A DNA stretch of 64,000 bases from Myxococcota bacterium (GCA_965250285.1 OZ252299.1:3552001-3616000); one strand, 5' to 3'; counted from the stretch's first letter, positions 34,608 through 48,267 are shown. A program made the numbers and translations. Notes: generated by a model not told the origin, from the sequence alone.

Positions 34608-36179
34608 CTACGGCTGCGCCCTCTCACGCGCAGCATCGACCCAGGTGGCCCGGTCTTCTTCGCCCCCGAACGAATCGGGATCGAGCAGCCCATCGACGAT
34701 GCTGAACTCGGCGGCCCCCGCCCGCGGCCAGGCGTCGAGGGCCCCGACCAGATCGGCAACCAGCTCCGGCCGATCAGCCGACTGGTCACTTTCTTCGAGC
34801 GGGTCTGCGTAGACGTCGTACAGCCTGGGCGGGTCGCCTTCGATGAGCTTCCAGGGCGGGCGATAGAGGGCTGCGCCTTCGAGCAGACCCGTGACGACGT
34901 AGTCGGGTGTCTCGCTGCCGGTCGGATCGCCCCGAAGCGCGGCCCACTGGCTTCGGCCGTCGAGGTCGTCGGGGATCGCGTCGGGCGCGCCGATCGCCTC
35001 GAGCAGGGTCGGCAAGACATCGGAGACCGTCATGAACCCATCGTGACGGCCGGCTTCGAGATGCCCGGGCCACAGGATCGCCGCCGGCACGCGGGTGCCG
35101 CCCTCGGCGACGCTGCCCTTCCCTCTCGACAGCGGGCGGTTGTCGCTGCCGCCGTCGAGCACGTTCGCCGCGAAGAACTCGAGCCCCGGGTGAAAGAGCG
35201 GCCGACCGAACCAATCGGTCAGCTGGCGCAGTACGATGCCCGGAAACGTGCCTTCGTAGACGCCCGAGTTGAGCCCGCCGTTGTCACTCGCGAACAGCAC
35301 GAGGGGGTCGTCGAGCATCCCCTCGGTTTCGAGTGCGGCGAGTAAGCGACCGATGGCGACATCGAGCTCGTGCACCATCGCTGCATGCAGCCGGCGCTGC
35401 CGATCTTCGATGTGCGCGTAGCGCTCGACGACACCCGCCGGCGCTTCGTTCGGCAGGTGGGGCGCGCTGAACGACGCGAAGAGAAAGGTGGGCCTCGACC
35501 GGTCACGCTCGGCCAGCAGTCGCACGGCCTCGTCGGCGAGCAAATGCGTCACGTAGCCCTCTTCGCGCAGGGTCGTGCCGTTTCGCTGCCAGTCGTAGCC
35601 GCCCCCGTGCACCCGATCCCAATAGCCGACGCCGCCCGAGAGAAAGCCATAGAACGACTCGAAGCCCCGCGCGTTCGGAAACAAGTCGGGCGTCGAGTGC
35701 CCGAGATGCCACTTGCCGACCATGAGGGGCTGATAGCCCTGGCGCGCCAGGTGCGTTGCGAGCGTGGTCTCGGCCACCGGGAGCCCGCCTTGCTGATTCT
35801 TCGAGATCGGCCGCTCGATGCCGAGACGCTGCGGCGACTTGCCGGTCATGAGCGCAGCGCGGGTCGGGCTGCACGAGGGCTGCGCGTAGAAGCGGTCGAG
35901 CTCGACGCCCTCTCGGGCGATGCGGTCGATCGATGGCGTGTCGATCTCGCTGCCGTGATACGACACGTCTCGCCAGCCGAGGTCGTCCGCGAGAATGAGC
36001 ACGACGTTCGGCCGAGCGGCCGGCTCGGGCCCGCTCGCCTCGGCGGCGCCCACGGGCGGCGCCAAGGCGAGCAGAGAGGCGAGCGCAGACGCCAAGACAA
36101 AGCCCGGCCCCCTCCCGACCCACGCATCTGCCGAGCCCTCCGTACGACGAAGCGAGGCCGCCGTGCCTCCCGTCGACAC
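34608..36179 (-). CDS. Arylsulfatase (Cys-type, secreted)
   Basis: PNVVLILADDLG, CSPTRAALMTG formylglycine motif, GKWHLG, APH, SDNGG, KG...EGG.RVP; signal-like hydrophobic stretch; start uncertain. Confidence 0.95.
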   Translation of the reverse strand: MSTGGTAASLRRTEGSADAWVGRGPGFVLASALASLLALAPPVGAAEASGPEPAARPNVVLILADDLGWRDVSYHGSEIDTPSIDRIAREGVELDRFYAQPSCSPTRAALMTGKSPQRLGIERPISKNQQGGLPVAETTLATHLARQGYQPLMVGKWHLGHSTPDLFPNARGFESFYGFLSGGVGYWDRVHGGGYDWQRNGTTLREEGYVTHLLADEAVRLLAERDRSRPTFLFASFSAPHLPNEAPAGVVERYAHIEDRQRRLHAAMVHELDVAIGRLLAALETEGMLDDPLVLFASDNGGLNSGVYEGTFPGIVLRQLTDWFGRPLFHPGLEFFAANVLDGGSDNRPLSRGKGSVAEGGTRVPAAILWPGHLEAGRHDGFMTVSDVLPTLLEAIGAPDAIPDDLDGRSQWAALRGDPTGSETPDYVVTGLLEGAALYRPPWKLIEGDPPRLYDVYADPLEESDQSADRPELVADLVGALDAWPRAGAAEFSIVDGLLDPDSFGGEEDRATWVDAARERAQP

Positions 36180-36187
36180 GACCGCGC

Positions 36188-36712
36188 CTACTCGGTTCGC
36201 CAGGGGATCCGCGCGCCCAGCCCGTGCAGCGGCTCGTCCGCATCGGGGTCGGCGTCTTCGACGTCGTGCACCGAGGGCGAGTGAAACGTCGAGTCGGGCG
36301 TGATGCGCACGACGACACGGTCTTCTTTCTCCATCACCTTGCGAATCACGGGGCGGGCTTCGTCGGGCACCGGGTTGCCGCTCATGATGGGGATGATGCG
36401 CGTGGCGACGTCGACGACGTGATCCATGTCGTTCGACAGACTCGCCTTGCCATCGACGACGAGATACTCGGGCGGCCATGAGAGGCCCGCCTGCTCGCCG
36501 GCGAGAATGCAGGCCGAGAGCTGGCCGAGTCGGTTCACCGCCTTCGCCTTCTGGCGGGCGGCCATCGTGAGAAAGACGATGTCGTCGCCATCCATCGCGT
36601 AGTGCACGATCGACATCGAGGGCGGGGCCGTCCTGCGTGCGTACGAGATGACGCACGTGTGGTTGCTGCGGACGAAGTCACGTCGGGTCTTGGCATCGTT
36701 CATCATGGCCAT
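36188..36712 (-). CDS. Pyridoxamine 5'-phosphate oxidase-like split beta-barrel protein
   Basis: RRDFVRSNHTCVISY...P.MSIVHY..DGDDIVF.T...RQKAK...YLVVDG.A...DRVVVRITP pattern; AAGGAG RBS. Confidence 0.8.
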   Translation of the reverse strand: MAMMNDAKTRRDFVRSNHTCVISYARRTAPPSMSIVHYAMDGDDIVFLTMAARQKAKAVNRLGQLSACILAGEQAGLSWPPEYLVVDGKASLSNDMDHVVDVATRIIPIMSGNPVPDEARPVIRKVMEKEDRVVVRITPDSTFHSPSVHDVEDADPDADEPLHGLGARIPWRTE

Positions 36713-36785
36713 TGAGGTTCTCCTTCGAATGGCCTCAGGATGCGGCGACCGGGTATGTTCAGCTATTTCGCCATGCGACTCCGAT

Positions 36786-36800
36786 ATACTTTCATGGCAT
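36786..36800. promoter_or_regulatory. Putative LysR box (ATAC-N7-GCAT) upstream of the PNPOx-like/sulfatase genes
   Basis: T-N11-A geometry; one mismatch from the ATGC-N7-GCAT box in front of the LysR gene. Confidence 0.55.
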
Positions 36801-36825
36801 AACCCTAGAGTGCCTCACACGCGCC

Positions 36826-37713
36826 TCAGCCGCCCACCGAGTCGAGCACGCTCGTGAGAAGCAGCTCGACGGCCGGCGGCAGCACCTCTTGCCGGTGGAT
36901 GAACCCCGCCGCGAGCTTGGGCAGCCCGCCGATTGCCAGCGAAGCCACCTGGCCGGCTTCGAGCTCGCTTCGCATCGCGCCGCGAGGCAGCGCCGTCAGA
37001 AAGTGCTCGCGCATCACGAGCGCCTTCAGCAGATCGAGCGAATCGGTCTCGACGCTGATGCGAGGTGAGTCGATGCCCCGCGACGCAGCGATCGCCCGAA
37101 ACATCTCGATGATCGAAGGCGGTCGGCTGATCAGCGCCCATCGCTCGTCGGCGAGCGCAGCGAGCTCGACCTTTCTCTTCTTGCGCAAGCGGTGCTCGGG
37201 GTGGCAGAGCACGAGCACGGGGTCTTCGACGAGCCCGTGCACCGTCAAGCCTTCGTGCGCCTCACCGGGCACGAGCAACGTAAACGCCCCATCGATCTCA
37301 CCGCTGCGGAGCGCGCGCACCAACGCATCATACGTACCCTCGATCACCGTGAACGTGATGCCCGAGCGTTCGGCCGAGAGCCGCTCGATCGCGCCCGGCA
37401 ACAGACTCGACAGCGCCGGCGCGATGCCGATGCGCGCGTGCCCCTGCACCCCGTCGCGCAGCGACTGCAGCTCGTCGAGCGCCTGCTGCCGATCTCGAAG
37501 CACGAGCCGCGCATGCCGCTCGAGCAGCGCGCCGTACACGGTGGTGGTCACGCCCTGACTGCTTCGCGTGAGCAGCTGGACGCCGAGCGCCTCTTCGAGC
37601 GCTCGAATGCGACGGCTGAGCCCCGGCTGCGCAACGCCCCGCTGCTCAGCAGCGCCGAGGATGCTTCCGTGCTCGACGACCGCGAGGAAGTCTTCGAGAT
37701 CGCGTATATCCAT
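36826..37713 (-). CDS. LysR family transcriptional regulator
   Basis: MDIRDLEDFLAVVEHGSILGAAEQRGVAQPGLSRRIRALEEALGVQLLTR HTH plus substrate-binding domain. Confidence 0.95.
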   Translation of the reverse strand: MDIRDLEDFLAVVEHGSILGAAEQRGVAQPGLSRRIRALEEALGVQLLTRSSQGVTTTVYGALLERHARLVLRDRQQALDELQSLRDGVQGHARIGIAPALSSLLPGAIERLSAERSGITFTVIEGTYDALVRALRSGEIDGAFTLLVPGEAHEGLTVHGLVEDPVLVLCHPEHRLRKKRKVELAALADERWALISRPPSIIEMFRAIAASRGIDSPRISVETDSLDLLKALVMREHFLTALPRGAMRSELEAGQVASLAIGGLPKLAAGFIHRQEVLPPAVELLLTSVLDSVGG

Positions 37714-37723
37714 GGATGAGAGT

Positions 37724-37738
37724 ATGCGAAAAATGCAT
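37724..37738. promoter_or_regulatory. LysR autoregulatory box ATGC-N7-GCAT
   Basis: ATGCGAAAAATGCAT with perfect 4-bp arms and T-N11-A, 10 bp upstream of the LysR start. Confidence 0.65.
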
Positions 37739-37896
37739 ATCCCGCGCTTGGGCACAGGTCCAATAGGGCATCGCCGCGAGCGCGAGGCCCGGGCCGAACC
37801 CCAGCATGATGCCCGGGGTGCTGGCGATCTGCCGTTCGAGAGGATGGCGCGGCACTTTTTTGAGCACTGATACGGAAGATCTCCTTGGGAGATTCA

Positions 37897-37958
37897 GATC
37901 ATATGATATGCTTTGGCTCAACCGCCCGGTCCGTCTAGCCGAGAAGGATCATATGATC
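37897..37958. promoter_or_regulatory. Two GATCATATGATC palindromes 50 bp apart; putative antitoxin operators
   Basis: GATCATATGATA at 37897-37908 (11/12) and perfect GATCATATGATC at 37947-37958; each contains TATGAT (-10-like). Confidence 0.7.
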
Positions 37959-38024
37959 TATTCGGGGAGGCAGTGTGGGAAGAGATGAACTCCGAGCAAC
38001 CACCATCACGATGGCGACTGAGCA

Positions 38025-38390
38025 ATGCGTGAACCACCCAACGACCATGATCTCGAGTGGGTCCGGGAGCAGATCATCATACGGGCGCGCGCCAGAAAGC
38101 GTCGCCGTCGAGGCTTCACGAGCGAGCGACCCACGCGATGGGCACCCCGCGCGGTTCTTACACCGACGTCACACACGTGCTTCAACGACGCCGATGCTTG
38201 GCGGTTCATTGCAGACCAGGCCGAAGCCGGTGCCGAGATTGGAATCGTGGCTCTCGAGAAACCACCGGACTGCATCGGCTACGTGATGCTCGTACCGGGC
38301 GGTGACGGCCGGCGCAAGATCTACATCAAGGTGGAGTTGGCTCCCGACGGTTCGATCATCGCTCGGAGCTTCCACTACAGCGATTACTAG
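38025..38390 (+). CDS. Putative MqsR-like (RelE-superfamily) toxin
   Basis: Small basic ORF directly upstream of an MqsA-like gene; C-terminal KIYIKVEL....IIARSFH resembles the MqsR-family YxK...ISFH ending. Confidence 0.65.
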   Translation: MREPPNDHDLEWVREQIIIRARARKRRRRGFTSERPTRWAPRAVLTPTSHTCFNDADAWRFIADQAEAGAEIGIVALEKPPDCIGYVMLVPGGDGRRKIYIKVELAPDGSIIARSFHYSDY

Positions 38391-38400
38391 AGGTTTGACG

Positions 38401-38958
38401 GTGCTAGACGAGAACATCACTGCTGATTCCAGCTCGATGCACTGCCCGAGGTGCGACGGTCGGGCAGGGGCCCGGTTCGAGATCGACCAATTCGACTACG
38501 GGGCCGGTGAGGATGCCGTCGAGCTGCAGGCACGCGTCGTGGTGTTTCGGTGCGATGCTTGTGACTACGACTTCATGGACGCATCTGCCGATGATGCGCG
38601 GCATCGCTCGGTTTGCGACCACCTCGGGCTCCTCGCACCGGACGACATCAAGTCGATCCGGAAAGCCTACGGGCTCTCAAGGGTGGATTTCGCTGCGATC
38701 ACCCGACTCGGCGAGGCAACCGTGGGTCGGTGGGAGCGCGGCGAGCTGCTTCAGAACGCTGCGTACGACAACTATCTGCGGCTCTTGAGTGACGAGCACA
38801 ACTTCAGCTTCGTACGTGACCGCGACCGTCGCGAGTCGGTGTCGACTCAGAGAGTCGCAAGCGGTGGCGTTGGCCAAATCGTCGAGTTGAGAGCGTTCAA
38901 GGATTCCCCAGACCGATTGGAATCGTCTCTGCGTAGGCAGAAGACCTTCCAGCTCTAG
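38401..38958 (+). CDS. mqsA: MqsA family antitoxin (Zn finger + XRE HTH) with C-terminal extension
   Basis: CPRC...CDAC zinc ribbon; LLAPDDIKSIRKAYGLSRVDFAAITRLGEATVGRWERG HTH; GAGGT RBS before GTG. Confidence 0.88.
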   Translation: MLDENITADSSSMHCPRCDGRAGARFEIDQFDYGAGEDAVELQARVVVFRCDACDYDFMDASADDARHRSVCDHLGLLAPDDIKSIRKAYGLSRVDFAAITRLGEATVGRWERGELLQNAAYDNYLRLLSDEHNFSFVRDRDRRESVSTQRVASGGVGQIVELRAFKDSPDRLESSLRRQKTFQL

Positions 38959-38969
38959 GTGTACAGATA

Positions 38970-40799
38970 GTGTTCGTAACGACCTTCTACTCATTCAAGG
39001 GCGGTGTTGGACGCACGCTGTCGATGGCGAACGTCGCGGTTCTCCTGGCACAGTCGGGGCGAAGTGTCCTCGTGGTCGACTTCGACCTTGAAGCGCCCGG
39101 CATCGATACTTTCCGCGAATTCGCCCCTCTGAAGCCCAACCGTGGCGTCGTCGACTTCGTCCATGATGCTCTGGAAGATGGCGCGACTCCTGATGTGTCA
39201 GCGTACGTCTATACGTGCACTGGGATCGGAGCGCGAGGCGGCGTACTTCGGGTGATGCCCGCAGGTATACGTGACGAGGGATACGCCCGACGTCTCGCGG
39301 ACATCAACTGGAGGCAACTCTATGAACACGGAGACGGGTTCCTGATTTTTGAAGACCTCAAGCAGCAATGGGAAGATCGGTTCAGTCCTGACTACGTCTT
39401 GATCGATTCGAGGACCGGTCACAGCGACGAGGCCGGCATCTGTACTCGTCAGCTTCCCGACTGCGTCGTGGCGCTCTTCTTCCCGAACGCGCAGAACCTC
39501 GAAGGTCTAGAGAAGGCGGTGTCCGACATTCGAGCAGAGAGTCAGGGCGTGGATGGGCGGCGGATCGAGTTGGTCTTCGTCATGTCTAATGTGCCTGATT
39601 TGGACGACGAGGATCACGTAATCAGCGACCGCCTGGGGGAGTTCGGCCGACGGCTTCAATTCTCTGAGCCCCCCGAACGGATTCATCACTACAACAGTCT
39701 CGCTCTGCTCAATCAGTCGATTTTCGCCATCGACCGTCGGCGCAGTCGACTCGCCCAGGAGTACCGGCACCTCACTACTCGGATTCGACGACTCAACTCG
39801 AGCGACCGCGAGGGGGCACGACGATTCCTCGCCGACCTCGGCAGGGCGCGGACTCGTCGCCCCATCGAAGAGGAGATGTCCGCGAGTGCGATCGAGGACA
39901 GGCTCCTTCGAATCCAAGTTGAGCATTCGGAAGATGGGGAGATACTGTACCTACTCGCACGGCACAGAATGCAGCAGGGTGAGCTCGAGCAGGCACGGGA
40001 GATCTTCTGGGATGCGCAGCGAACGGGCGAAGCGCCAAGCGACGTTTGGCTTCGGCGCGCTGAGTGTGCTCGCAGCCTCGGCCTGAAGAACGAGGCTCGC
40101 GATGACGCGTTGGCCTACCTACGCGAAGACCACGGCGACCTTCAGCCGTTCGATGTGATCGTCGCTCTAAGGATCTTGAGGCAAGTTGACCCCGAATCTC
40201 TCTCGGAGATCGCAGAGACGAATGCGGTCGAGAAGCTGAGAAACGTAGACCGCGTGTGGATCGCCAGGAATCTTGCGCGGTCCGCTCGCGAGCTGTCCTC
40301 GGCGTGGACCATCCTTCAGCCTGCGCTGGACGACCGACGAACGCATGAAGATGCACTGCAAGCTGCCAAGCTAATTCTGATCGGTCTAGGACGGTTCGAC
40401 GAGGCTCTCGAGGCGTTCTCTGACAGTAGCGAAGCGCAGCCCAGCCTCCCTGATGCGTTCAATCGAGCAATGGCTACCTGGGGGAGGGACGGTCAACCAG
40501 ATCGATCACTCTTCGCCGAGATCGTGCGACTGTCCGAGGGCTACGATGAGCACGAGGCCAACTTCTTCCAGTGCATGGCGCTCGCCAATCACGTAATCGG
40601 GAACTCGGCTGACGCCAACGAGTTCTTGTCGCGCGCTCGGACGCGTGCGATCGGATCGCCGCAGCCGATGTTCAGCTGCTGGCGGTACCGCGAAGTCGGA
40701 ACAGACGCATTTCTTGACGACTTGAGGTCCATCGAATCCCTAATGGAAGGGGCGGACGAAGTGCCGAAATTCATCTCACGGCTGGCGGCGGGGGAATAA
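38970..40799 (+). CDS. KGGVGR-variant ParA/MinD-like ATPase fused to TPR-like helical repeats
   Basis: TFYSFKGGVGRT (deviant Walker A with K to R), LVVDFDLEAPG, VMPAG, DYVLIDSRTG; C-terminal ~330 aa of TPR-like helices. Confidence 0.85.
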   Translation: MFVTTFYSFKGGVGRTLSMANVAVLLAQSGRSVLVVDFDLEAPGIDTFREFAPLKPNRGVVDFVHDALEDGATPDVSAYVYTCTGIGARGGVLRVMPAGIRDEGYARRLADINWRQLYEHGDGFLIFEDLKQQWEDRFSPDYVLIDSRTGHSDEAGICTRQLPDCVVALFFPNAQNLEGLEKAVSDIRAESQGVDGRRIELVFVMSNVPDLDDEDHVISDRLGEFGRRLQFSEPPERIHHYNSLALLNQSIFAIDRRRSRLAQEYRHLTTRIRRLNSSDREGARRFLADLGRARTRRPIEEEMSASAIEDRLLRIQVEHSEDGEILYLLARHRMQQGELEQAREIFWDAQRTGEAPSDVWLRRAECARSLGLKNEARDDALAYLREDHGDLQPFDVIVALRILRQVDPESLSEIAETNAVEKLRNVDRVWIARNLARSARELSSAWTILQPALDDRRTHEDALQAAKLILIGLGRFDEALEAFSDSSEAQPSLPDAFNRAMATWGRDGQPDRSLFAEIVRLSEGYDEHEANFFQCMALANHVIGNSADANEFLSRARTRAIGSPQPMFSCWRYREVGTDAFLDDLRSIESLMEGADEVPKFISRLAAGE

Positions 40800-41938
40800 T
40801 GCTAGATCCCGCGAGCCTTGAAGCGCTGCAGCTCCAGATCGATGAGGCTATCGAGGCCGACCGAGGTCGATTCGATGAGCTGTGCGCAGAAGTGAGTCCC
40901 CTTGGGCGGTCGACCAGGCGCATCAAGCCGTACAGGACTACCGCGATCTCGCTCGTTGGTACTGATGGCGGGAACAACCAGGTCTCGTTCGATCCATTCA
41001 TGGTTCAGCTTGTACGAGTCGTCGACTCAAGCAACAACGAGTACTGCCTGGAGGCCGTTACCCCGTCAACCCCCTTCGATGTTCTTCATGCTCGTCACTT
41101 GTCGAGCGAGGGCAAGGGTCTGACGGCGCTTGGTCGCATGATGGAGCTACTTGGTGTCCGCACGCTGCACGAACTTTCGATGATCTCGCCGCCTCCGGAA
41201 GAACCGAAGCCCTCATGGGTTCAGGTTTACCGTGAGCTGACCGAGTGGGCGATTCTCCTCGACCTCGTGCGCTCGCGGAGTTTCGCAACGGATACGTTGA
41301 TCATCCAAGATGGGCTGCTGCGGAGCAAAGTCTTCCGAGGGTACCTGTTTCGCGACTATCGACGAGCTCTCGAGCAGGCGATCGAGGACCAATACAAGAA
41401 AGACCGTCGGCGTGTCTTCGTCGCTGGCGTTTCGAAGCACAGCAAGGTTCTACAGACTTACAATCTCGCGATGCACTCTAAGGGCGTGCTCCGGACAGAG
41501 TACCCGGCGTTCGTTGAAGTCCCGCGCGCCATCGAGCTCTCTGTCTACAAGTGGGAAGAGTATGCGCGGGGCGGTGACGATGAGGGCGCTGGAGGTGAGG
41601 GGAACAAGTTCGTCGCAGGCCGCATGTACTTTGTGAAGTTCGGGACGAGCCCAATCGACCCGGTTTGGGCGGTCGACTTGTTCGAACCCCAAGTTACCGA
41701 GGCGGACAGGATTTTCGGCTACATGCTCGAGGATGCGATTGAGGGGTTTCCCGTCCCCTTCTACCCGCAGTGTCTACAGCGTGCCCACGACAATGCCGCG
41801 CTGGCGGGCTTCGACATGGAGATTCTCTCGGATCAGATCAAGACAGGCGTCAAGGCGTCGCTCGGCGAAGCCGGCTCGATCGTTGATGAGCTCGCGGTGA
41901 TGGTCGACGACCCCGCTGCGCGTCGATACGGAGCCTGA
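40799..41938 (+). CDS. nurA: NurA family nuclease
   Basis: VGTDGG and LIIQDGLL acidic catalytic motifs, AGVSKHS, GFP...YPQCLQRAHDNA (NurA GYP..L..AH); TAATG overlap with the upstream gene; adjacent to HerA. Confidence 0.8.
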   Translation: MLDPASLEALQLQIDEAIEADRGRFDELCAEVSPLGRSTRRIKPYRTTAISLVGTDGGNNQVSFDPFMVQLVRVVDSSNNEYCLEAVTPSTPFDVLHARHLSSEGKGLTALGRMMELLGVRTLHELSMISPPPEEPKPSWVQVYRELTEWAILLDLVRSRSFATDTLIIQDGLLRSKVFRGYLFRDYRRALEQAIEDQYKKDRRRVFVAGVSKHSKVLQTYNLAMHSKGVLRTEYPAFVEVPRAIELSVYKWEEYARGGDDEGAGGEGNKFVAGRMYFVKFGTSPIDPVWAVDLFEPQVTEADRIFGYMLEDAIEGFPVPFYPQCLQRAHDNAALAGFDMEILSDQIKTGVKASLGEAGSIVDELAVMVDDPAARRYGA

Positions 41939-41939
41939 C

Positions 41940-44066
41940 ATGTCCGATCTGTTTCCGAAGGAGATGGTCATCGGGGCCTTTCGGGGGTTTTCTCAAGGGG
42001 GGCTCGAGTTTCACGCGGACCTCGCGATCCCGTATCGGCCAGATCTCCACTCAGTCCCCATGCACGGGCAGTTCGTCGTGGTCCAACTCGAGAACCCCGA
42101 TGAGGGTGTACTCGGCCGAATCACCTCCCTCTCCGCAGACGGCCGACTCTCAAGCAGCGTTGGAGAGGACTACAACATTCGTGCGATTCGCGAGGATCGA
42201 CCGATCTCGGAACAGCTTCGTAGCGACTACCTGAAGTACCGAGTCGGCATTCGAGTGCTCGGCTTGCTCCATGTCAGGGACGACGAGCCTGCTTTCGTAC
42301 CGTCGCATCGACGTTTGCCGCATGTGGGCAGCCCTGTTGCGTTCCTAGATCCGAAGATTCTTCAGACGCTTGTTGGCCACCGCGGAGCAGGGGCCGACAT
42401 CGGCGTGTTCGCGCTTGGCGAGTACGTGTACGGACGGGGCAGCGATCTGATTGAGGCGGAGGACTGGATGCAGATCGAGGATCCGGAGATCGTAGTCCGG
42501 TTCCCAATCATGAATCTCGTCTCGCGTCGGACGTTCGTCTTCGCGCGGGCGGGCTTCGGAAAGTCGAATCTAAACAAGCTGCTGTTTTCGAAGCTCTACG
42601 AGAAGACTCCAACCGTTTCCAAGCGAGGCGGGCGAGAGGTTCCTGTTGGGACACTAATCTTCGACCCAGAGGGTGAGTACTTTTGGCCCGACGACTCAGG
42701 CCGCCCTGGCCTCTGCGACTGCCCGCAGTTGTCGGACCAGATCGTCGTGTTCACGCCCCGAGAAGCACCCAGCCCGTTCTATGGAAGCTTCGTTGCAGGC
42801 GGAATCAAGCTCGACGTCCGGAGACTTCGCCCTCGTGACGTGATCTCGATCGCGCTGCCTCCCGAGAAACAGGACCAACAGAATGTCGGGAAGCTGCGCA
42901 GCTTGAACTCGGGCGCATGGGCGGAACTCGTGGACCTCATCTACGCGCAGGGGCGGGGTGCCGACCTCGACGAGATCCAGCGCATCCTGAATCTAGAGAG
43001 GGACCAACAGAAGGCCGAAGCGCTCGCTGCTCGCTCGAACATGGCTCTTGTAGTCGGCGGACTGCATGATCCATCTAGTCAGTTGATGGACAAGCTGCTT
43101 GCCGCTCTTTCGGACGGAAAACTCTGCATCGTTGACGTCTCGCAGATGAGAGGCAACGCTGCTTTGATTCTCTCAGGTCTGATTCTTCGAAGAATCTTCG
43201 ACCGGAATCAAGAGGAGTTCACCCGGGCGGAGCCGAGAACGATTCCTACGATCGCGGTTGTGGAAGAGGCACAGTCGGTTCTAAATGAGAAGGCATCCGC
43301 GGCCGGGCCATACATCGAGTGGGTAAAGGAAGGGCGGAAGTATGATCTCGGGGCCATGCTCATTACGCAGCAGCCGGGCAGTATCCCGAAGGAGATTTTG
43401 AGCCAGGGCGACAACTGGTTTGTCTTCCACTTGCTGTCGGAGGACGATCTAGGCAGGGTGCGATCTGCGAACGCACACTTCAGTCGAGATCTGCTCAGCA
43501 CTCTTCTCAATGAGCCGATCAAGGGGCAAGGTCTCTGCTGGAGTTCAGAGGGCACGGCCCAGTTCCCCGTTTCTCTGCGTGTGGCATCGTTCGAGTCACA
43601 ATACTCGAGACTCGACAAGTCGTACTCTCGAGATGCGGTCGAGTGCTATGCGGGGACGCTAAGAGACCGTTTCGATTCGAATCGCTCGGTGTTGGCACCT
43701 TCGATCCGCGAGAAGGCCGAAGCTAACGTTCCGGATGCGTCCGACGACGCGGCTGGGTTCAGGCTGACTGGATCGCCACCTGACCACTTCCGATCGCACC
43801 AAGACACCGCTATCGACACTCTGCGAAACGATCCCAGTTTCTGGGCCTCGATCGACGCCGGCGGTATCCCGTATGGCAAGGTGGTTGGAATCCTAAAGGA
43901 TGCCTTGCCGGAAGACCTGGATGGTCGAGGCGACCTAGCCTTCAATTTGGTGCCGGCAGCCCTGGACGAAGTCTTCGATGGTGAGCAGGAAGTCGCCTGG
44001 GCGACCGAGATACGCACCACGAGAAGTGGTAAACCAACAAGATTCGTCGTGCGCGTTCGGAGCTAG
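41940..44066 (+). CDS. herA: HerA/FtsK-family ATPase (HAS barrel + ATPase) with C-terminal extension
   Basis: N-terminal beta barrel, Walker A ARAGFGKS, LIFDPEGEY, Walker B VVEEAQ, Arg finger EGRKY, ITQQP. Confidence 0.9.
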   Translation: MSDLFPKEMVIGAFRGFSQGGLEFHADLAIPYRPDLHSVPMHGQFVVVQLENPDEGVLGRITSLSADGRLSSSVGEDYNIRAIREDRPISEQLRSDYLKYRVGIRVLGLLHVRDDEPAFVPSHRRLPHVGSPVAFLDPKILQTLVGHRGAGADIGVFALGEYVYGRGSDLIEAEDWMQIEDPEIVVRFPIMNLVSRRTFVFARAGFGKSNLNKLLFSKLYEKTPTVSKRGGREVPVGTLIFDPEGEYFWPDDSGRPGLCDCPQLSDQIVVFTPREAPSPFYGSFVAGGIKLDVRRLRPRDVISIALPPEKQDQQNVGKLRSLNSGAWAELVDLIYAQGRGADLDEIQRILNLERDQQKAEALAARSNMALVVGGLHDPSSQLMDKLLAALSDGKLCIVDVSQMRGNAALILSGLILRRIFDRNQEEFTRAEPRTIPTIAVVEEAQSVLNEKASAAGPYIEWVKEGRKYDLGAMLITQQPGSIPKEILSQGDNWFVFHLLSEDDLGRVRSANAHFSRDLLSTLLNEPIKGQGLCWSSEGTAQFPVSLRVASFESQYSRLDKSYSRDAVECYAGTLRDRFDSNRSVLAPSIREKAEANVPDASDDAAGFRLTGSPPDHFRSHQDTAIDTLRNDPSFWASIDAGGIPYGKVVGILKDALPEDLDGRGDLAFNLVPAALDEVFDGEQEVAWATEIRTTRSGKPTRFVVRVRS

Positions 44067-45175
44067 CCTGTCACAGCGTACACGTCGAACTCCTGGCGCG
44101 ACCTCCCGATACCTCGCGCAAACTGGTCGGATTGGCGTTTGCCATCTGTCGCCGCACCCGCGTCGCGACGTGTGACGATCTTCCAGCCCGAATCCTGGAA
44201 CGACTGCATGCACACGTCGACGGGGTCTGCTCTTCGATCATGGATGCCTCCAAAGCGGCACACGAGGCGCGCGCTGGAGTTGGAAACAGCCGCGCAGGCA
44301 CGCCAAACATCCCGAAGCTGCGCGGCGAAGCTCTCCGGGCTGTCGTGTTGAAGCTGGCCCGATTGCTGGCGGTAGTCGATTTCATCCGATGCGCCAACGA
44401 ACCAGTCTCTGAGCCACTGGTCCTGCACGTATGTGCGGAGGCCGTAGTACGGTGGTGACGTCACGATCCAGTCTACGCGATCTACGTCACGAAACGAATC
44501 AGGTTCACGAGCGTCACCGCACACAATCGTGTTGTCCGCGGTCGGAAGGGCGTCCGCCAGGTACCACGTCGCCCGCTTGCGTACGACGTCTAAGACCCGG
44601 ACACCCGGCGGGCGGAGCCCTCGCCTTGACCAAAAGCCGATCGCGTAGCGAGGCTTCGGCGCAAACGTTCGAGGTGCTTGGTTGGAGAAGTAGGATGGCT
44701 CTCCTACGTTGAGCGGCCCGTGTAGCGCGCCGAGCATGATCCCTCGAAGCGCGGCTCGGGCGGGGCTCCGGCAATCGCGCATCAGCGCTTCCCGGACCTT
44801 GCAGATGTCGTGGAGAGTCCGAGACGAGAAAGCCAACCGCCAGAACATTCCCTTCGGAATGTCGGGTGAGTTCGATTCGTCGTCCAGAATTCTCTGCGCC
44901 GCCCTAACAACCTGAGCGGCGGTAGTCGCCTCCATCTTCGATCGAGAGATGGCAGCGGCTACAGAGCTGCTGTCGATTCCTACCGACGGCAGGCCAAGCA
45001 CCCGGGCCGCGAAGGTAGTCGTCCCGCGCCCGCAGAAAGGGTCGAGGACACGGTCGCCAGGCCGTGCGCGGCGCGCAAGTAGACGCAGCGGGAAGTCGAG
45101 CGGGAACATCGTAAAGTAGGGGCAGATCGCGTTCAGACGCGGCTGGCGAGTCGGTACCTGGAGTTGATTGATCAC
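44063..45175 (-). CDS. DNA methyltransferase, amino-type with SPPY motif (probable N4-cytosine, alpha motif order)
   Basis: CPYFTMFP (motif X), VLDPFCGRGTT (motif I), long central region, IVTSPPY (motif IV); stop overlaps the HerA stop (CTAG). Confidence 0.9.
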   Translation of the reverse strand: MINQLQVPTRQPRLNAICPYFTMFPLDFPLRLLARRARPGDRVLDPFCGRGTTTFAARVLGLPSVGIDSSSVAAAISRSKMEATTAAQVVRAAQRILDDESNSPDIPKGMFWRLAFSSRTLHDICKVREALMRDCRSPARAALRGIMLGALHGPLNVGEPSYFSNQAPRTFAPKPRYAIGFWSRRGLRPPGVRVLDVVRKRATWYLADALPTADNTIVCGDAREPDSFRDVDRVDWIVTSPPYYGLRTYVQDQWLRDWFVGASDEIDYRQQSGQLQHDSPESFAAQLRDVWRACAAVSNSSARLVCRFGGIHDRRADPVDVCMQSFQDSGWKIVTRRDAGAATDGKRQSDQFARGIGRSRQEFDVYAVTG

Positions 45176-45515
45176 GGGGCCCCCGGCGAGAAACTAGATT
45201 GCGACCTGGTCGCTCACAACGTGTTCAAACTTAGCGCCGACCACGAGGCGCCGTGGCGATCAGCTCGACCGGTCACGAGAACCGGCTTCCGCAGACTGCC
45301 AGCAGCAGCTTCAGGGCGACCCGAAGCAACAGACGATGTGCCATCTACGCCGCGTCCGCCTGTTCGAATCGAAGTCGCAGCACTTCGCGACGCGTGCGAT
45401 ACACCTGACCTACCGCCTCATCTGAATCATCGGCGGCGTGATTGGCGTTGAGTTCTTGCTTCGAGCCGGCACGAACTGATAGAACCGATAGCACCCATTC
45501 TCGAAAGGGATCGCA

Positions 45516-46214
45516 ATGCCGGGTCTATTTCGATGCGTATTGCTCTCGCTATTGGCTGCTGGAGTGGTTGGTTTCCCCGCGGCCTCCCGCGCCGCCCTCC
45601 TGATCGACGGCTTCGATGGCTCGCAGCAAGCCGAGGGCGGCCTCACGAGCCATCTGCTCGCGAACGTGCTCGGCGGTGAGCGCGACGTTCACTCGGGCTT
45701 CCCCAACTCGACGGCGCGGGTCGAGAACGGGCAGTTCATCGTCGAAGCCGCCGAAGGCGACATCGAGGTCGAAGGCTGGTTGATCTACGACGGCATCGAC
45801 GACTCGCCCGTGCGCGACGTCGACGGTCTCGGGGGCGTCGACCTGACGGCGGGCGGCACCCTCGACGCGTTCGCGATCAGGCTCGATTCGGCGAGCGCCG
45901 AGTTCAACATCCGCATCTGGATCTACTCTGCGACCGATCTGAGGATCTACCAGTCGCCCTCGATCGATCCGTCCGAGCTCGTGGCCCCTGTCGACCTGAT
46001 CTTCCCGTTCGCCGACTTTCCGCCCGGCACACCGCTGACCGAGGCCGGGCTGATCCTCGTGAACTTCGAGAACGACAGTCGAACGACCGGCCTCGAGCTG
46101 GCGGTCTCTTCGATCAAGCTGATCCCCGAGCCCAGCACGGTCCTGCTCACCGGGGTCGGGCTTCTGTGGCTCGGCCGATGCAGTCGCCGAAGCGGTCGGC
46201 GACTCATCTTCTGA
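45516..46214 (+). CDS. PEP-CTERM sorting domain protein
   Basis: Signal peptide; LLIDGFD...LGGERD acidic beta-rich body; IPEPSTVLLTGVGLLWLGRCSRR tail. Confidence 0.9.
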   Translation: MPGLFRCVLLSLLAAGVVGFPAASRAALLIDGFDGSQQAEGGLTSHLLANVLGGERDVHSGFPNSTARVENGQFIVEAAEGDIEVEGWLIYDGIDDSPVRDVDGLGGVDLTAGGTLDAFAIRLDSASAEFNIRIWIYSATDLRIYQSPSIDPSELVAPVDLIFPFADFPPGTPLTEAGLILVNFENDSRTTGLELAVSSIKLIPEPSTVLLTGVGLLWLGRCSRRSGRRLIF

Positions 46215-46272
46215 GGCCTGCCTGACGACCAGCTGCTCTGTCGAGGATGCGGGGTGAGCGCAGGCCGCCTAC

Positions 46273-46608
46273 CTAGCCCGACGATCGCAACCCCGGAAGA
46301 ATCGCGAAGCGGGTCTCTCCCGTGAGCTCTTCGACGCGGATCTTCTTGAAGGGCGCGTAGGCGTCTGATTCGTAGAGCTCGCGGGCGACCTGGGCGCTCG
46401 GCACCTTGACGATGACCGTCCAGTTGCCCGACCACTCGCCCTCGAGCACTTCGGGCTCAGACGTTGCGACGAGAATCTCGGCACCGGCCTCGGCGAACAT
46501 CCGACCCACGGGCATGCCGTATCGCTCACCGTAGGCTTCGAAATCCTTCACATCGATCATGGCGACCATGTACACGGGCGATTCCACTGCCGTCTCCTCT
46601 GTGTTCAT
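46273..46608 (-). CDS. DUF1330 domain protein
   Basis: YMVAMIDVKDFEAY...EVLEGEW...VIVKVPS...A..LYESDAY pattern. Confidence 0.85.
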   Translation of the reverse strand: MNTEETAVESPVYMVAMIDVKDFEAYGERYGMPVGRMFAEAGAEILVATSEPEVLEGEWSGNWTVIVKVPSAQVARELYESDAYAPFKKIRVEELTGETRFAILPGLRSSG

Positions 46609-46665
46609 GCGAATCGAATCTCGGCGACGGTCACTGACCGCCCGCGGCGCCGCCCTACCCTGAGC

Positions 46666-47310
46666 TCATTCGCTCGCCCAACGCTCCCAATGCGTGCAGT
46701 CTTCAGGCGGTTTGCGTCGCGGTCGCCCCCAGCCGCCGACCGGGTATCCGACCGGGATCAGGGCCACGGCGCGAACGGTGTCGGGCAGCTCGAGTACTTC
46801 GCGCACCGGCGTGCACTCGAGCGCGCCGGCGGGGCAGTAGTCGGAGCCCAGCGTCAGCAACACCGTGCCCAGTCCACGCGAACGAGCGGCCAGCATCAGA
46901 TTCTGGATCGCCGGATAGATCGAACCGAACAGACCCGACGCCACCGCGGCGCTGTCGGGGCACGGCACCGTCAGGCAGGGCACGATGATCGCCGGCGCCT
47001 CGTCGAGGTGCTCGACGTTGTGCATGGCCTGGCCGTACACGCGGCGCTGCTCGTCGCCGGTCGCGGGGCTCGCCAGCACCCCGTCGCGGATGTAGCGGCG
47101 CCCCGCCTCGCGATACGCGACCGCGATCTGCTCGCGTTGGCGAGGCTCGGTGACGACGACGAACGACCAGAGCTGAAGGTTGCCGGCGCTCGGCGCCATG
47201 GTCGCCGCCTCGATGACGTACTCGAGGTCGGCGCGCGGCACGGCATCGGGCAAGAGCCGGCGCATGGAGCGCAGCGTGAAGATCGCATCATGCGTCGAAA
47301 GATCGGCCAT
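46666..47310 (-). CDS. Nitroreductase family protein
   Basis: LRSMRR, AATMAPSAGNLQLWSFVVV, AIQNLMLAARSRGLGT, IPVGYP. Confidence 0.93.
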   Translation of the reverse strand: MADLSTHDAIFTLRSMRRLLPDAVPRADLEYVIEAATMAPSAGNLQLWSFVVVTEPRQREQIAVAYREAGRRYIRDGVLASPATGDEQRRVYGQAMHNVEHLDEAPAIIVPCLTVPCPDSAAVASGLFGSIYPAIQNLMLAARSRGLGTVLLTLGSDYCPAGALECTPVREVLELPDTVRAVALIPVGYPVGGWGRPRRKPPEDCTHWERWASE

Positions 47311-47412
47311 GCAGGTCTGACTCCTTCGCGTGCGCGCGGGGCGCTTCCGCGCCGATCGGTGTCGATCGACCCGGCGAAGCGCCTCATCGGGGCCACCCGA
47401 GCGGCGACGAGC

Positions 47413-48267
47413 TCAGTCGAGCTGGATGATGTCGAGCCCCTCGACGTCGCCGTAGGGGTTCGTCGGGTTTCGGCTTGCTTCGATGTCGGCATAGCGAACC
47501 CGAAGCGCCTGCTTCGTGATGTCGTGGGTGAAGATCCAGAACTTGTCCTGGCGCATCGCCTCGACGATGTCGCCCGCGACCTGCGTCGTCGTGATGCCCA
47601 TGGCGGTGATCGCTTCGCGCAGGGGCGCGATCGTCGCGGTCTGCGCCGCGGTCATCTCGGCGCCGTCGTCGCGGTTGCGCTCCGAGTGAAAGATGCCGGT
47701 GTTCACCAGGTTCGGGCAGAGGCAGTGCACCGATACGCCCGTGCCCTCGAGCTCGCGAAAGAGCGATTCTGAGAGGCCGACGACCGCGTGCTTCGTCGCC
47801 GTGTACATGCCGAGCACGGCGCTCGATACGTGACCCGCTTCGCTCGCCGTGTTGATGATGTGGCCCTCGCCCGCCTCTTTCAGGATCGGTCCGAAGGTCG
47901 TGACACCGTAGGCGACGCCGAGCACGTTCACGTCGACGATCCACTTCCAGTCGGCCGGGGTCGTCTCGAGCATCGGCCCGACCGGCGCCACGCCGGCATT
48001 GTTGACGACGACGTGCACTGCGCCGTAGTGCTCGAGGGTGCGGTCGGCGAGCTCGCGGACCGACTCGGGGTCGCGCACGTCGCAGACGACCCCGACGACG
48101 TCGGCCCCCTCACCCGAGAGACGCGACGTCTCTCGGTCGAGCGAACCCTGCTCGATGTCGGCCATCACGACCTTCATGCCTTCGGCGACGAAGCGCTCGG
48201 TGACCCCCAGACCGATGCCACCCGCGGCACCGGTCACGACGGCGACCTTCCCGTTGAAATCCTGCAT
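47413..48267 (-). CDS. SDR family oxidoreductase
   Basis: TGAAGGIG, NNAGV, NTAS, YTATK; GAGGAG RBS. Confidence 0.95.
   Translation of the reverse strand: MQDFNGKVAVVTGAAGGIGLGVTERFVAEGMKVVMADIEQGSLDRETSRLSGEGADVVGVVCDVRDPESVRELADRTLEHYGAVHVVVNNAGVAPVGPMLETTPADWKWIVDVNVLGVAYGVTTFGPILKEAGEGHIINTASEAGHVSSAVLGMYTATKHAVVGLSESLFRELEGTGVSVHCLCPNLVNTGIFHSERNRDDGAEMTAAQTATIAPLREAITAMGITTTQVAGDIVEAMRQDKFWIFTHDITKQALRVRYADIEASRNPTNPYGDVEGLDIIQLD

Follow-up and report, generated by a model that had tools for sequence, protein, structure and literature searches.

We describe a six-gene locus in a 64,000-nucleotide (nt) window of DNA from a Myxococcota bacterium (GCA_965250285.1 OZ252299.1:3552001-3616000; the window is that whole stretch, and positions are counted within it). 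The locus consists of two modules and is not an obligate six-gene unit. Module A comprises the genes for a toxin candidate, a tailed antitoxin and a KGGVGR-TPR protein (called the ATPase below), and it recurs as a unit of its own, usually without module B. Module B comprises the genes for a NurA-like nuclease, a HerA-type motor and a DNA methylase, and it is a mobile cassette that usually stands alone. An earlier note, made from the sequence alone, had proposed a single candidate defence system composed of an MqsRA-like toxin-antitoxin (TA) pair, a KGGVGR ParA-TPR protein, NurA, HerA and a convergent methyltransferase. The six genes, their gaps, the overlapping stops and the low G+C content (GC) of the block were all reproduced in place, and the gene identities were supported by profile and structure matches. 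Co-occurrence in far-off taxa was also borne out, as the same six-gene order recurs in distant bacteria. The notion of one fixed system did not survive, because the modules mostly stand apart: NurA-HerA-methylase is mostly found alone, and the ATPase lay upstream of NurA in just one of 68 GTDB loci. The features of the locus are the following.

37898..37907, no strand: palindrome ATCATATGAT, upstream copy; candidate antitoxin operator
37948..37957, no strand: palindrome ATCATATGAT, downstream copy, 50 nt further on; contains TATGAT
38025..38390, + strand: MqsR-fold toxin candidate, 121 amino acids (aa); start codon uncertain
38401 (GTG)..38958, + strand: MqsA-like antitoxin with Zn-binding CxxC-CxxC, XRE helix-turn-helix and C-terminal tail
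38970..40799, + strand: KGGVGR MinD/ParA-fold + TPR-like protein, 609 aa
40799..41938, + strand: NurA-like nuclease, TdpB-like (PF09376, below cut-off)
41940..44066, + strand: HerA/FtsK ring ATPase, TdpA-like (DUF87)
44063..45175, - strand: amino-methyltransferase (N4C or N6A; PF01555), convergent on the five-gene run

The gaps between toxin, antitoxin, ATPase, NurA and HerA genes are 10, 11, -1 (TAATG) and 1 nt. At their stops, the open reading frames of HerA and the methylase share 4 nt (44063-44066). Every one of the six genes is present once in the genome. A public contig covers positions 35500-47500 unbroken with no differences, and it may be the source of the assembly.

Module A: a toxin, a tailed antitoxin and a KGGVGR-TPR protein

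Module A was sampled as 80 metagenome loci of the ATPase-TPR gene, from a scan that covered 23 of 64 collection parts. Of the 70 loci with 1 kb of upstream sequence, 68 had an antitoxin gene before the ATPase and 61 had the toxin gene. In six loci (L117, L135, L143, L146, L147 and L161; homologous loci carry L numbers) the toxin slot held another small family, which is divergent and shares 14-19% identity with the window toxin. Module A also stands alone on plasmids of Rhizobium gallicum, Massilia forsythiae, Polymorphobacter and Rhizobium phaseoli (L165, L166, L167, L168); of these, L165, L166 and L168 have the toxin gene, although their gene tables do not list it. At E 1e-80 the ATPase-TPR was not found in 400 genomes of the window's phylum. 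Split or frameshifted ATPase genes occur in L096 and L140.

The first gene had no Pfam, NCBIfam or PADLOC match, and its sequence profile gave nothing significant against PDB and Pfam. Its structure model (predicted local distance difference test, pLDDT, 93.7) matched MqsR (3hi2_D) best among 48,161 chains, with Z 8.9 (next row 4.9), a root-mean-square deviation of 2.7 over 90 aligned positions and a sequence identity of 9%. Foldseek returned no rows for this model at E<=0.001, and an NTF2-like fold, taken from weaker Foldseek rows, was dropped in favor of the MqsR match. In the cluster at row 7 of the Atlas search (score 0.91), 17% of the members carry MqsR_toxin. Residues Y100, K102 and S115-F116-H117 are kept in 91-98% of 66 homologues. 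From the modeled fold, the first gene product is a candidate toxin of the MqsR fold (RelE/BECR superfamily) in an unnamed family.

The antitoxin passes the cut-off of the MqsA family model TIGR03830 (62.5 against 61.8), and its four cysteines are invariant among homologues. Its profile matches MqsA (3gn5) with an E value of 1.1e-7, confined to positions 16-137, and past the MqsA-matching part lies a tail with a median length of 48 aa. Across 58 homologues the tail conserves F163 (86%), R164 (64%), F183 (90%) and L185 (93%), and both tail motifs (F163-R164 and F183-x-L185) were found together in 39 of the 58, as against a mean of 2.7 and a maximum of 8 in shuffles. We also sampled 401 genomes of the Acidobacteriota, the phylum of L041, and obtained loci for 30 of the 34 antitoxin matches there. 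All nine matches that reached into the tail had the toxin gene before them and the ATPase gene after them, compared with none of 21 other antitoxins; since ATPase-linked antitoxins went into building the profile, kinship confounds this count. The pair L174/L203, with a tail-less antitoxin and no toxin or ATPase matches, had been considered as a natural control; it appears to be a truncated remnant and was not counted. In L200 (G765) a second MqsA-like gene lies about 1 kb upstream of module A.

The third protein passes the KGGVGR model NF047398 (163.7 bits against 90) and matches TPR models as well. A MinD/ParA-fold domain at about residues 1-275 is followed by helical TPR-like repeats, and the structure model (pLDDT 87.5) has its best Foldseek matches in Soj/MinD. 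Residues K10-G11-G12 and G14-R15 are invariant in 24 sequences, with arginine standing invariably at the P-loop position of the ParA/MinD lysine. A change from lysine to arginine in the P-loop often permits nucleotide binding yet slows hydrolysis; the protein is therefore labelled an ATP-binding-fold protein rather than a proven ATPase. Short variants from which most of the TPR part is gone (L112, L116, L117, L136, L143, L200 and L202) still follow a tailed antitoxin, and the core partner of the antitoxin may therefore be the ParA-fold domain. A full-text literature search for the KGGVGR motif gave nothing relevant.

Among 80 hand-picked proteins from the neighborhoods of module A were CBASS, Piwi, SIR2, GmrSD, Mrr, KAP and TIR proteins and recombinases. 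Module A directly adjoins CBASS-type genes (SMODS cyclase, HORMA, AAA ATPase) in L085, where the two are co-directional, and in L130, L150 and L121, where they are divergent. On the plasmid locus L168, module A converges on a cluster of DUF3320, DNA-repair exonuclease and AAA ATPase genes.

Module B: NurA, HerA and a methylase

The NurA-like protein falls below the PF09376 cut-off (E 8.5e-4; 19.3 against 21). Residues D56, D171 and H330 are invariant in 22 sequences, and we take them to be the putative catalytic residues, as in NurA. The only PDB match of the family profile was TdpB (8wet_G), a weak one with an E value of 1.3e-3 over 119 positions. The HerA-type protein matches DUF87 (E 5.5e-20), and its Walker A (ARAGFGKS) and Walker B (VVEEAQ) motifs are intact and kept in 77 homologues. 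Its best PDB match, TdpA (8wet_A), has an E value of 7.7e-24 and the next one 6.6e-12, which speaks of homology, not orthology. The methylase matches N6_N4_Mtase (PF01555, E 2.4e-13) and the PADLOC type II methyltransferase model (E 8e-16), with the motifs in the order DPFCGRGTT then TSPPYY. Both motifs and a central LGALHGP...PRTxAPKP region are kept in 66 homologues, and the shared central region suggests that these enzymes may recognize one common target site. The genome is depleted of the palindromes AAGCTT (0.39), AACGTT (0.42) and CTAG (0.30), a depletion that is not assignable to this methylase.

In the GTDB species collection the NurA query gave 291 relatives, and the best 80 were kept for locus analysis. 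These loci span 13 phyla, with NurA 53-59% identical to the query. HerA follows NurA in 79 of the 80, the contig ending at that point in the remaining one. A methylase gene was present in 62 of the 70 module-B loci with room for it, co-directional in 43 and on the opposite strand in 19. Module B alone was also found in cultured Methylococcus, Cupriavidus and Desulfacinum. HerA or the methylase is split or frameshifted in L005, L034 and L053. NurA gave no matches in 72,556 plasmids and 50,697 phages.

Genes of restriction-modification (RM), BREX, GmrSD, HEPN, AIPR, Shedu, HNH, TIR, DUF3223 or WYL type occur in at least 34 of the 80 module-B loci, and in 27 of the 56 loci of at least 13 kb; the count is a lower bound, taken from 77 of 248 neighbor proteins scanned and without a background rate. 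Defence-type neighbors, which the earlier note had proposed to look for, occur at homologous loci of both modules. The NurA-HerA copies that lack a methylase are L049, L051, L060, L044, L030, L033, L061 and L081. A DUF3223 gene lies downstream of NurA-HerA in L049, L051 and L060, and a WYL gene lies upstream, beside type I RM genes, in L044, L049 and L060. In the Myxococcota copies L005 (13363-15706), L011, L015 and L026, and also in L009 and L053, a pair of GmrSD-N and HEPN (RiboL-PSP) genes stands between HerA and the methylase.

Loci in which the two modules are joined

The two modules are fused in 11 loci: the window, L041, L082, L084, L088, L089, L113, L125, L139, L141 and L157. Nine of the 11 show all six genes, at least in part, and L041, found in GTDB through NurA, has the six in the same order as the window. 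The fused NurAs form one clade in a quick tree rooted on 18 distant homologues (approximate likelihood ratio support, SH-aLRT, 88; 24 of the 79 stand-alone rows included), and they fall on one side of a branch in an unrooted quick tree of the full set (SH-aLRT 90, long branches flagged). The fused HerAs likewise lie on one side of a branch with a FastTree support of 98. Ten of the 11 fused loci were found through the ATPase and nine come from a collection other than that of the stand-alone rows, so that sampling may add to this clustering; L041, which was reached through NurA, sits inside the fused clade. The top NurA and top ATPase matches share 8 contig-length values among 119 x 119, as against a mean of 0.5 and a maximum of 4 under jitter, which hints indirectly at further fused loci.

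Within the fused loci the ATPases are 39-71% identical (median 43%) and the NurAs 45-86% (median 53%). Mantel tests gave rho 0.68 for ATPase and NurA distances and rho 0.72 for ATPase and HerA (p 2e-4); after removal of L088, a member of a close pair, the values were 0.70 (NurA) and 0.80 (HerA). In the ten other fused loci the gap between ATPase and NurA genes is -14 to +41 nt, and the two overlap in six of the ten. In eight of the nine fused loci where it was seen, the methylase lies on the opposite strand, compared with 18 of 61 stand-alone loci, a contrast that is not an independent test since those 18 are mostly in neighboring clades. On the ATPase tree the fused label costs seven changes, and module B must therefore have been repeatedly lost or gained. 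As judged from the trees, one old fusion followed by repeated loss of module B would fit, and repeated gain is also possible.

A paired palindrome upstream of the toxin gene

The sequence ATCATATGAT occurs twice in the 6.25-Mb genome, both times upstream of this toxin gene. After removal of near-identical loci, 57 of 74 module-A loci had the pattern ATCA-NN-TGAT in the 220 nt preceding the toxin gene, as against a shuffle mean of 0.4 and a maximum of 3, and none of 76 regions upstream of stand-alone NurA genes had it. The pattern was present in all ten fused loci with upstream sequence. The copies are often paired, 40-53 nt apart, and the center is mostly TA. Among the 34 loci that have both TTGAC[AT] and the palindrome, 14 have a copy starting 17-22 nt after TTGAC[AT], ten have a copy 20-23 nt before it, and 19 have a copy about 20 nt away on either side. 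The downstream copy overlaps the expected -10 position in homologous loci, its TATGAT standing in place of a -10 box, and therefore part of the palindrome conservation may reflect a -10 box. MqsA binds operator palindromes and autorepresses. The simplest reading of the paired palindromes is that they would be an antitoxin operator astride the promoter. Autoregulation of the operon by the TA pair had been suggested in the earlier note, which overlooked the palindromes; the pair is there, and its role as an operator is our inference.

Composition and genomic setting

The six-gene block has a GC of 60.0%, compared with 68.6% for the genome, and only 4 of 873 windows of equal size are equally low. 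GC at third codon positions (GC3) is 0.68-0.74 in the genes of the block and 0.81-0.87 in five flanking genes. The block, with this foreign composition, was likely acquired horizontally. It is flanked by a divergent LysR regulator gene (36826-37716) and by a gene for a PEP-CTERM-tailed secreted protein (45516-46214), both with host-like GC3. No convincing direct or inverted repeats were found in a search around the block for insertion borders. The flanking LysR gene had no close match in family-level relatives and one in 25 relatives overall, in an order-level genome; because of the former, an empty site could not be demonstrated. A promoter and terminator scan of the window gave no promoter-like sites, and terminators were at chance level.

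Comparison with known systems

Judged by its parts, the locus resembles both Tdp and toxin-antitoxin-chaperone (TAC) systems and yet belongs to neither, TdpC and SecB being missing. A tdpC-type gene is absent from the cluster, whose six genes are all of other families, and the two genes of the PAPS-reductase family in the genome, a family to which TdpC presumably belongs, lie more than 1.5 Mb from the locus. TdpAB reportedly degrades DNA without the modification. The tdpABC genes encode a phosphorothioate-based defence whose only gene for modification is tdpC (PMC12914056, PMC13223576). Our locus is like TdpABC (An et al., Nat Chem Biol 2025, doi 10.1038/s41589-024-01832-w; PDB 8wet, 8wfd, 8y1k) in that HerA is nearest to TdpA and a motor and nuclease are accompanied by a single DNA-modifying gene; it differs in that the modifier is an N4C/N6A-type methylase and not TdpC, the TdpA match is partial, and a TA-ATPase head stands in front.

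SecB acts on the antitoxin tail in the TAC systems MqsRAC, HigBAC and CmdTAC (PMC5105189; 10.1101/2024.02.24.581848), and MqsRAC acts jointly with restriction systems at separate loci (10.1101/2023.02.25.529695). Module A shares with these systems the gene order of toxin, antitoxin and third gene, an MqsR-fold toxin and an antitoxin tail with conserved aromatics. Unlike them, it has as its third gene a 609-aa MinD/ParA-fold and TPR protein and not a SecB-like chaperone, and its tail is conserved family-wide, whereas ChAD tails are described as highly variable. Compared with MqsR/MqsA of E. coli, it has the same toxin fold (Z 8.9), a Zn-finger and helix-turn-helix antitoxin, the toxin gene first and paired upstream palindromes, and it differs in the 9% toxin identity, the extra tail, the near-constant third gene and the palindrome ATCA-NN-TGAT.

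The earlier note had pointed to the HerAs that partner with Sir2 or DUF4297 nucleases. Like Sir2-HerA and DUF4297-HerA, the locus has a HerA with an effector in a defence context, and PADLOC HerA models match at E 6e-18; the Sir2 or DUF4297 partner is missing, a NurA-like nuclease and a methylase stand in its place, and the closest solved relatives are TdpA and TdpB. Two NCBIfam models of anti-phage HerA scored 54.8 against 800 and 21.6 against 850 bits, below cut-off. No system was complete among the PADLOC models matched, as the earlier note had expected. PADLOC PDC-M28B (from the set of 10.1101/2024.01.29.577857) matches the ATPase domain partially (E 1.4e-30, residues 4-217 only), and no other PDC-M28 model matched among the six proteins and 58 antitoxins. 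As in type II RM, there is an amino-methyltransferase with intact S-adenosylmethionine-binding and catalytic motifs; no cognate endonuclease of a known family was found in Pfam, NCBIfam or PADLOC, and the nuclease is NurA-like.

This combination of genes, NurA-HerA-methylase, and MqsRA with ParA-TPR are all undescribed in the full-text literature searched, which excludes subscription papers and bioRxiv supplements. The parts seen of PMC11980606, PMC10853773, PMC7251087 and 10.1101/2024.01.29.577857 hold no description of this locus.

Proposed function and alternative explanations

By analogy with Tdp and TAC, we favor by a little the view that the fused locus is a two-layer anti-phage or anti-plasmid defence, in which a restriction-like module would stand under a TAC-like tripartite TA system with the ParA-TPR protein replacing SecB. 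The MqsA-like antitoxin would bind the palindromes and repress a single promoter for toxin, antitoxin, ATPase-TPR, NurA and HerA, so that NurA-HerA would be co-regulated with the toxin. The methylase, on the other strand and expressed independently, would mark self DNA first. Module B would be RM-like, a TdpAB-type machine that reads methylation in place of phosphorothioation, and NurA-HerA would pump and destroy DNA without the methylase mark. The KGGVGR-TPR protein would grip the antitoxin tail and stabilize the antitoxin, as SecB does in TAC, until a phage protein or a nucleotide change displaced it. Loss of the antitoxin would then free the MqsR-like RNase and halt translation, and would also derepress the nuclease and its motor, so that unmarked DNA would be cleared. 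Of these inferred steps, repression at the operator is the one in which we have most confidence, followed by the RM-like nature of module B, and the contact between tail and ATPase is the weakest. A more ambitious claim, that module A is a new tripartite TA immune switch, in which the ParA-TPR protein holds the tail and releases it on infection, and that the switch also controls a methylation-guided, TdpAB-like shredder, is tentative, and we lean against it.

A number of observations weigh against the two-layer defence. The fusion itself is uncommon: NurA follows the ATPase in 9 of the 50 metagenome loci with room (eight by a distance rule plus L113, which has a short ATPase; 4 of the 50 are identical copies), module B follows module A in one of nine Acidobacteriota loci and none of four plasmid loci, and the figure of one ATPase in 68 GTDB loci refers to those with 2 kb upstream of NurA. 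The seven label changes on the ATPase tree count on the same side. Antitoxin distances are uncorrelated with those of NurA (rho 0.19, p 0.20) and of the ATPase (rho 0.19, p 0.16), and two of the fused methylases, those of L113 and L125, cluster away from the remaining five. The methylase is missing from 8 of 70 module-B loci, so that NurA-HerA can be carried without methylation. In L112, L116, L117, L136 and L143 (329-383 aa) the ATPase has a short TPR half or none, and the link between tail and ATPase in the Acidobacteriota suffers from the kinship already mentioned. No -35 match was found upstream of the toxin in the window. Many module-A loci lie among housekeeping genes, the defence neighbors of this module were tallied without a background rate, and none of the genes seen right next to the window locus is a defence gene.

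Several of these points would be expected if A and B were independent cassettes that have hitch-hiked together since an old insertion, A serving as an addiction module or separate defence and B having its own promoter. Each module is mostly found alone, the B label changes seven times on the ATPase tree, module A has many unrelated defence systems as neighbors and occurs on plasmids, and linkage alone would give the co-divergence seen. Such passive stacking is a possibility to be taken seriously, though we think it unlikely: the distance between the ATPase and NurA genes has kept to -14 to +41 nt across ten loci whose ATPases have diverged to about 43% identity, the TAATG coupling in the window leaves no intergenic room, and the palindrome is found in 10/10 fused loci compared with 0/76 regions upstream of stand-alone NurA.

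The patchy spread, the recombinase, integrase or transposase neighbors, the presence of module A on plasmids and the insertion amid housekeeping genes could also point to selfish double addiction, in which loss of the cassette would be lethal through methylase and NurA-HerA, in the manner of type II RM, with the TA pair as a second lock and defence as an incidental effect. We consider this improbable, given that NurA has no match in the plasmids and phages searched, that eight loci retain NurA-HerA without a methylase, and that defence genes are frequent nearby.

The wiring proposed in the earlier note, in which the ATPase-TPR senses for or gates a NurA-HerA complex and the TA pair is an accessory, draws on the coupling of the ATPase and NurA genes and on their having the strongest co-divergence in the fused loci. 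As a primary role it does not hold up well, and we rate it as quite improbable: the regular partner of the ATPase is the TA pair (antitoxin before it in 68/70 loci, NurA after it in 9/50), and such an ATPase is absent upstream of NurA in 67 of 68 GTDB loci.

Least probable by far is a DNA end-resection or repair locus like the HerA-NurA of archaea and Deinococcus, stress-regulated by MqsRA, which would account for the two domains in one operon with motifs intact and for weak matches to repair HerA models and archaeal HerA (4d2i, E 9.8e-10), and which founders on repair-HerA scores far under the cut-offs (46.6 against 800, 31.4 against 970), on patchy occurrence, foreign composition and methylase linkage, and on the lack of Mre11/Rad50 among the six genes and 77 scanned neighbors. 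Descent as a vertically inherited core repair locus, which the earlier note had itself put forward as a check, was rejected on the sub-cut-off scores, the foreign composition and the NurA query, which found nothing in 40 relatives (of which 27 have a completeness of 90% or more and a contamination of 5% or less).

Implications

What is new here is module A, the operator-like palindrome and the fused clade; module B is uncharacterized. If the two-layer defence is correct, the unstudied KGGVGR ATPases would gain a role as sensors that hold an antitoxin, and the TAC principle would extend past SecB. Module B would be a methylation-based counterpart of Tdp, implying that a HerA-NurA motor-nuclease can be adapted to a different self mark. 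The fused locus would also be a natural case of cooperation between TA and restriction in one operon, a cooperation known so far from separate loci (10.1101/2023.02.25.529695), and dormancy and DNA clearance would follow from one trigger.

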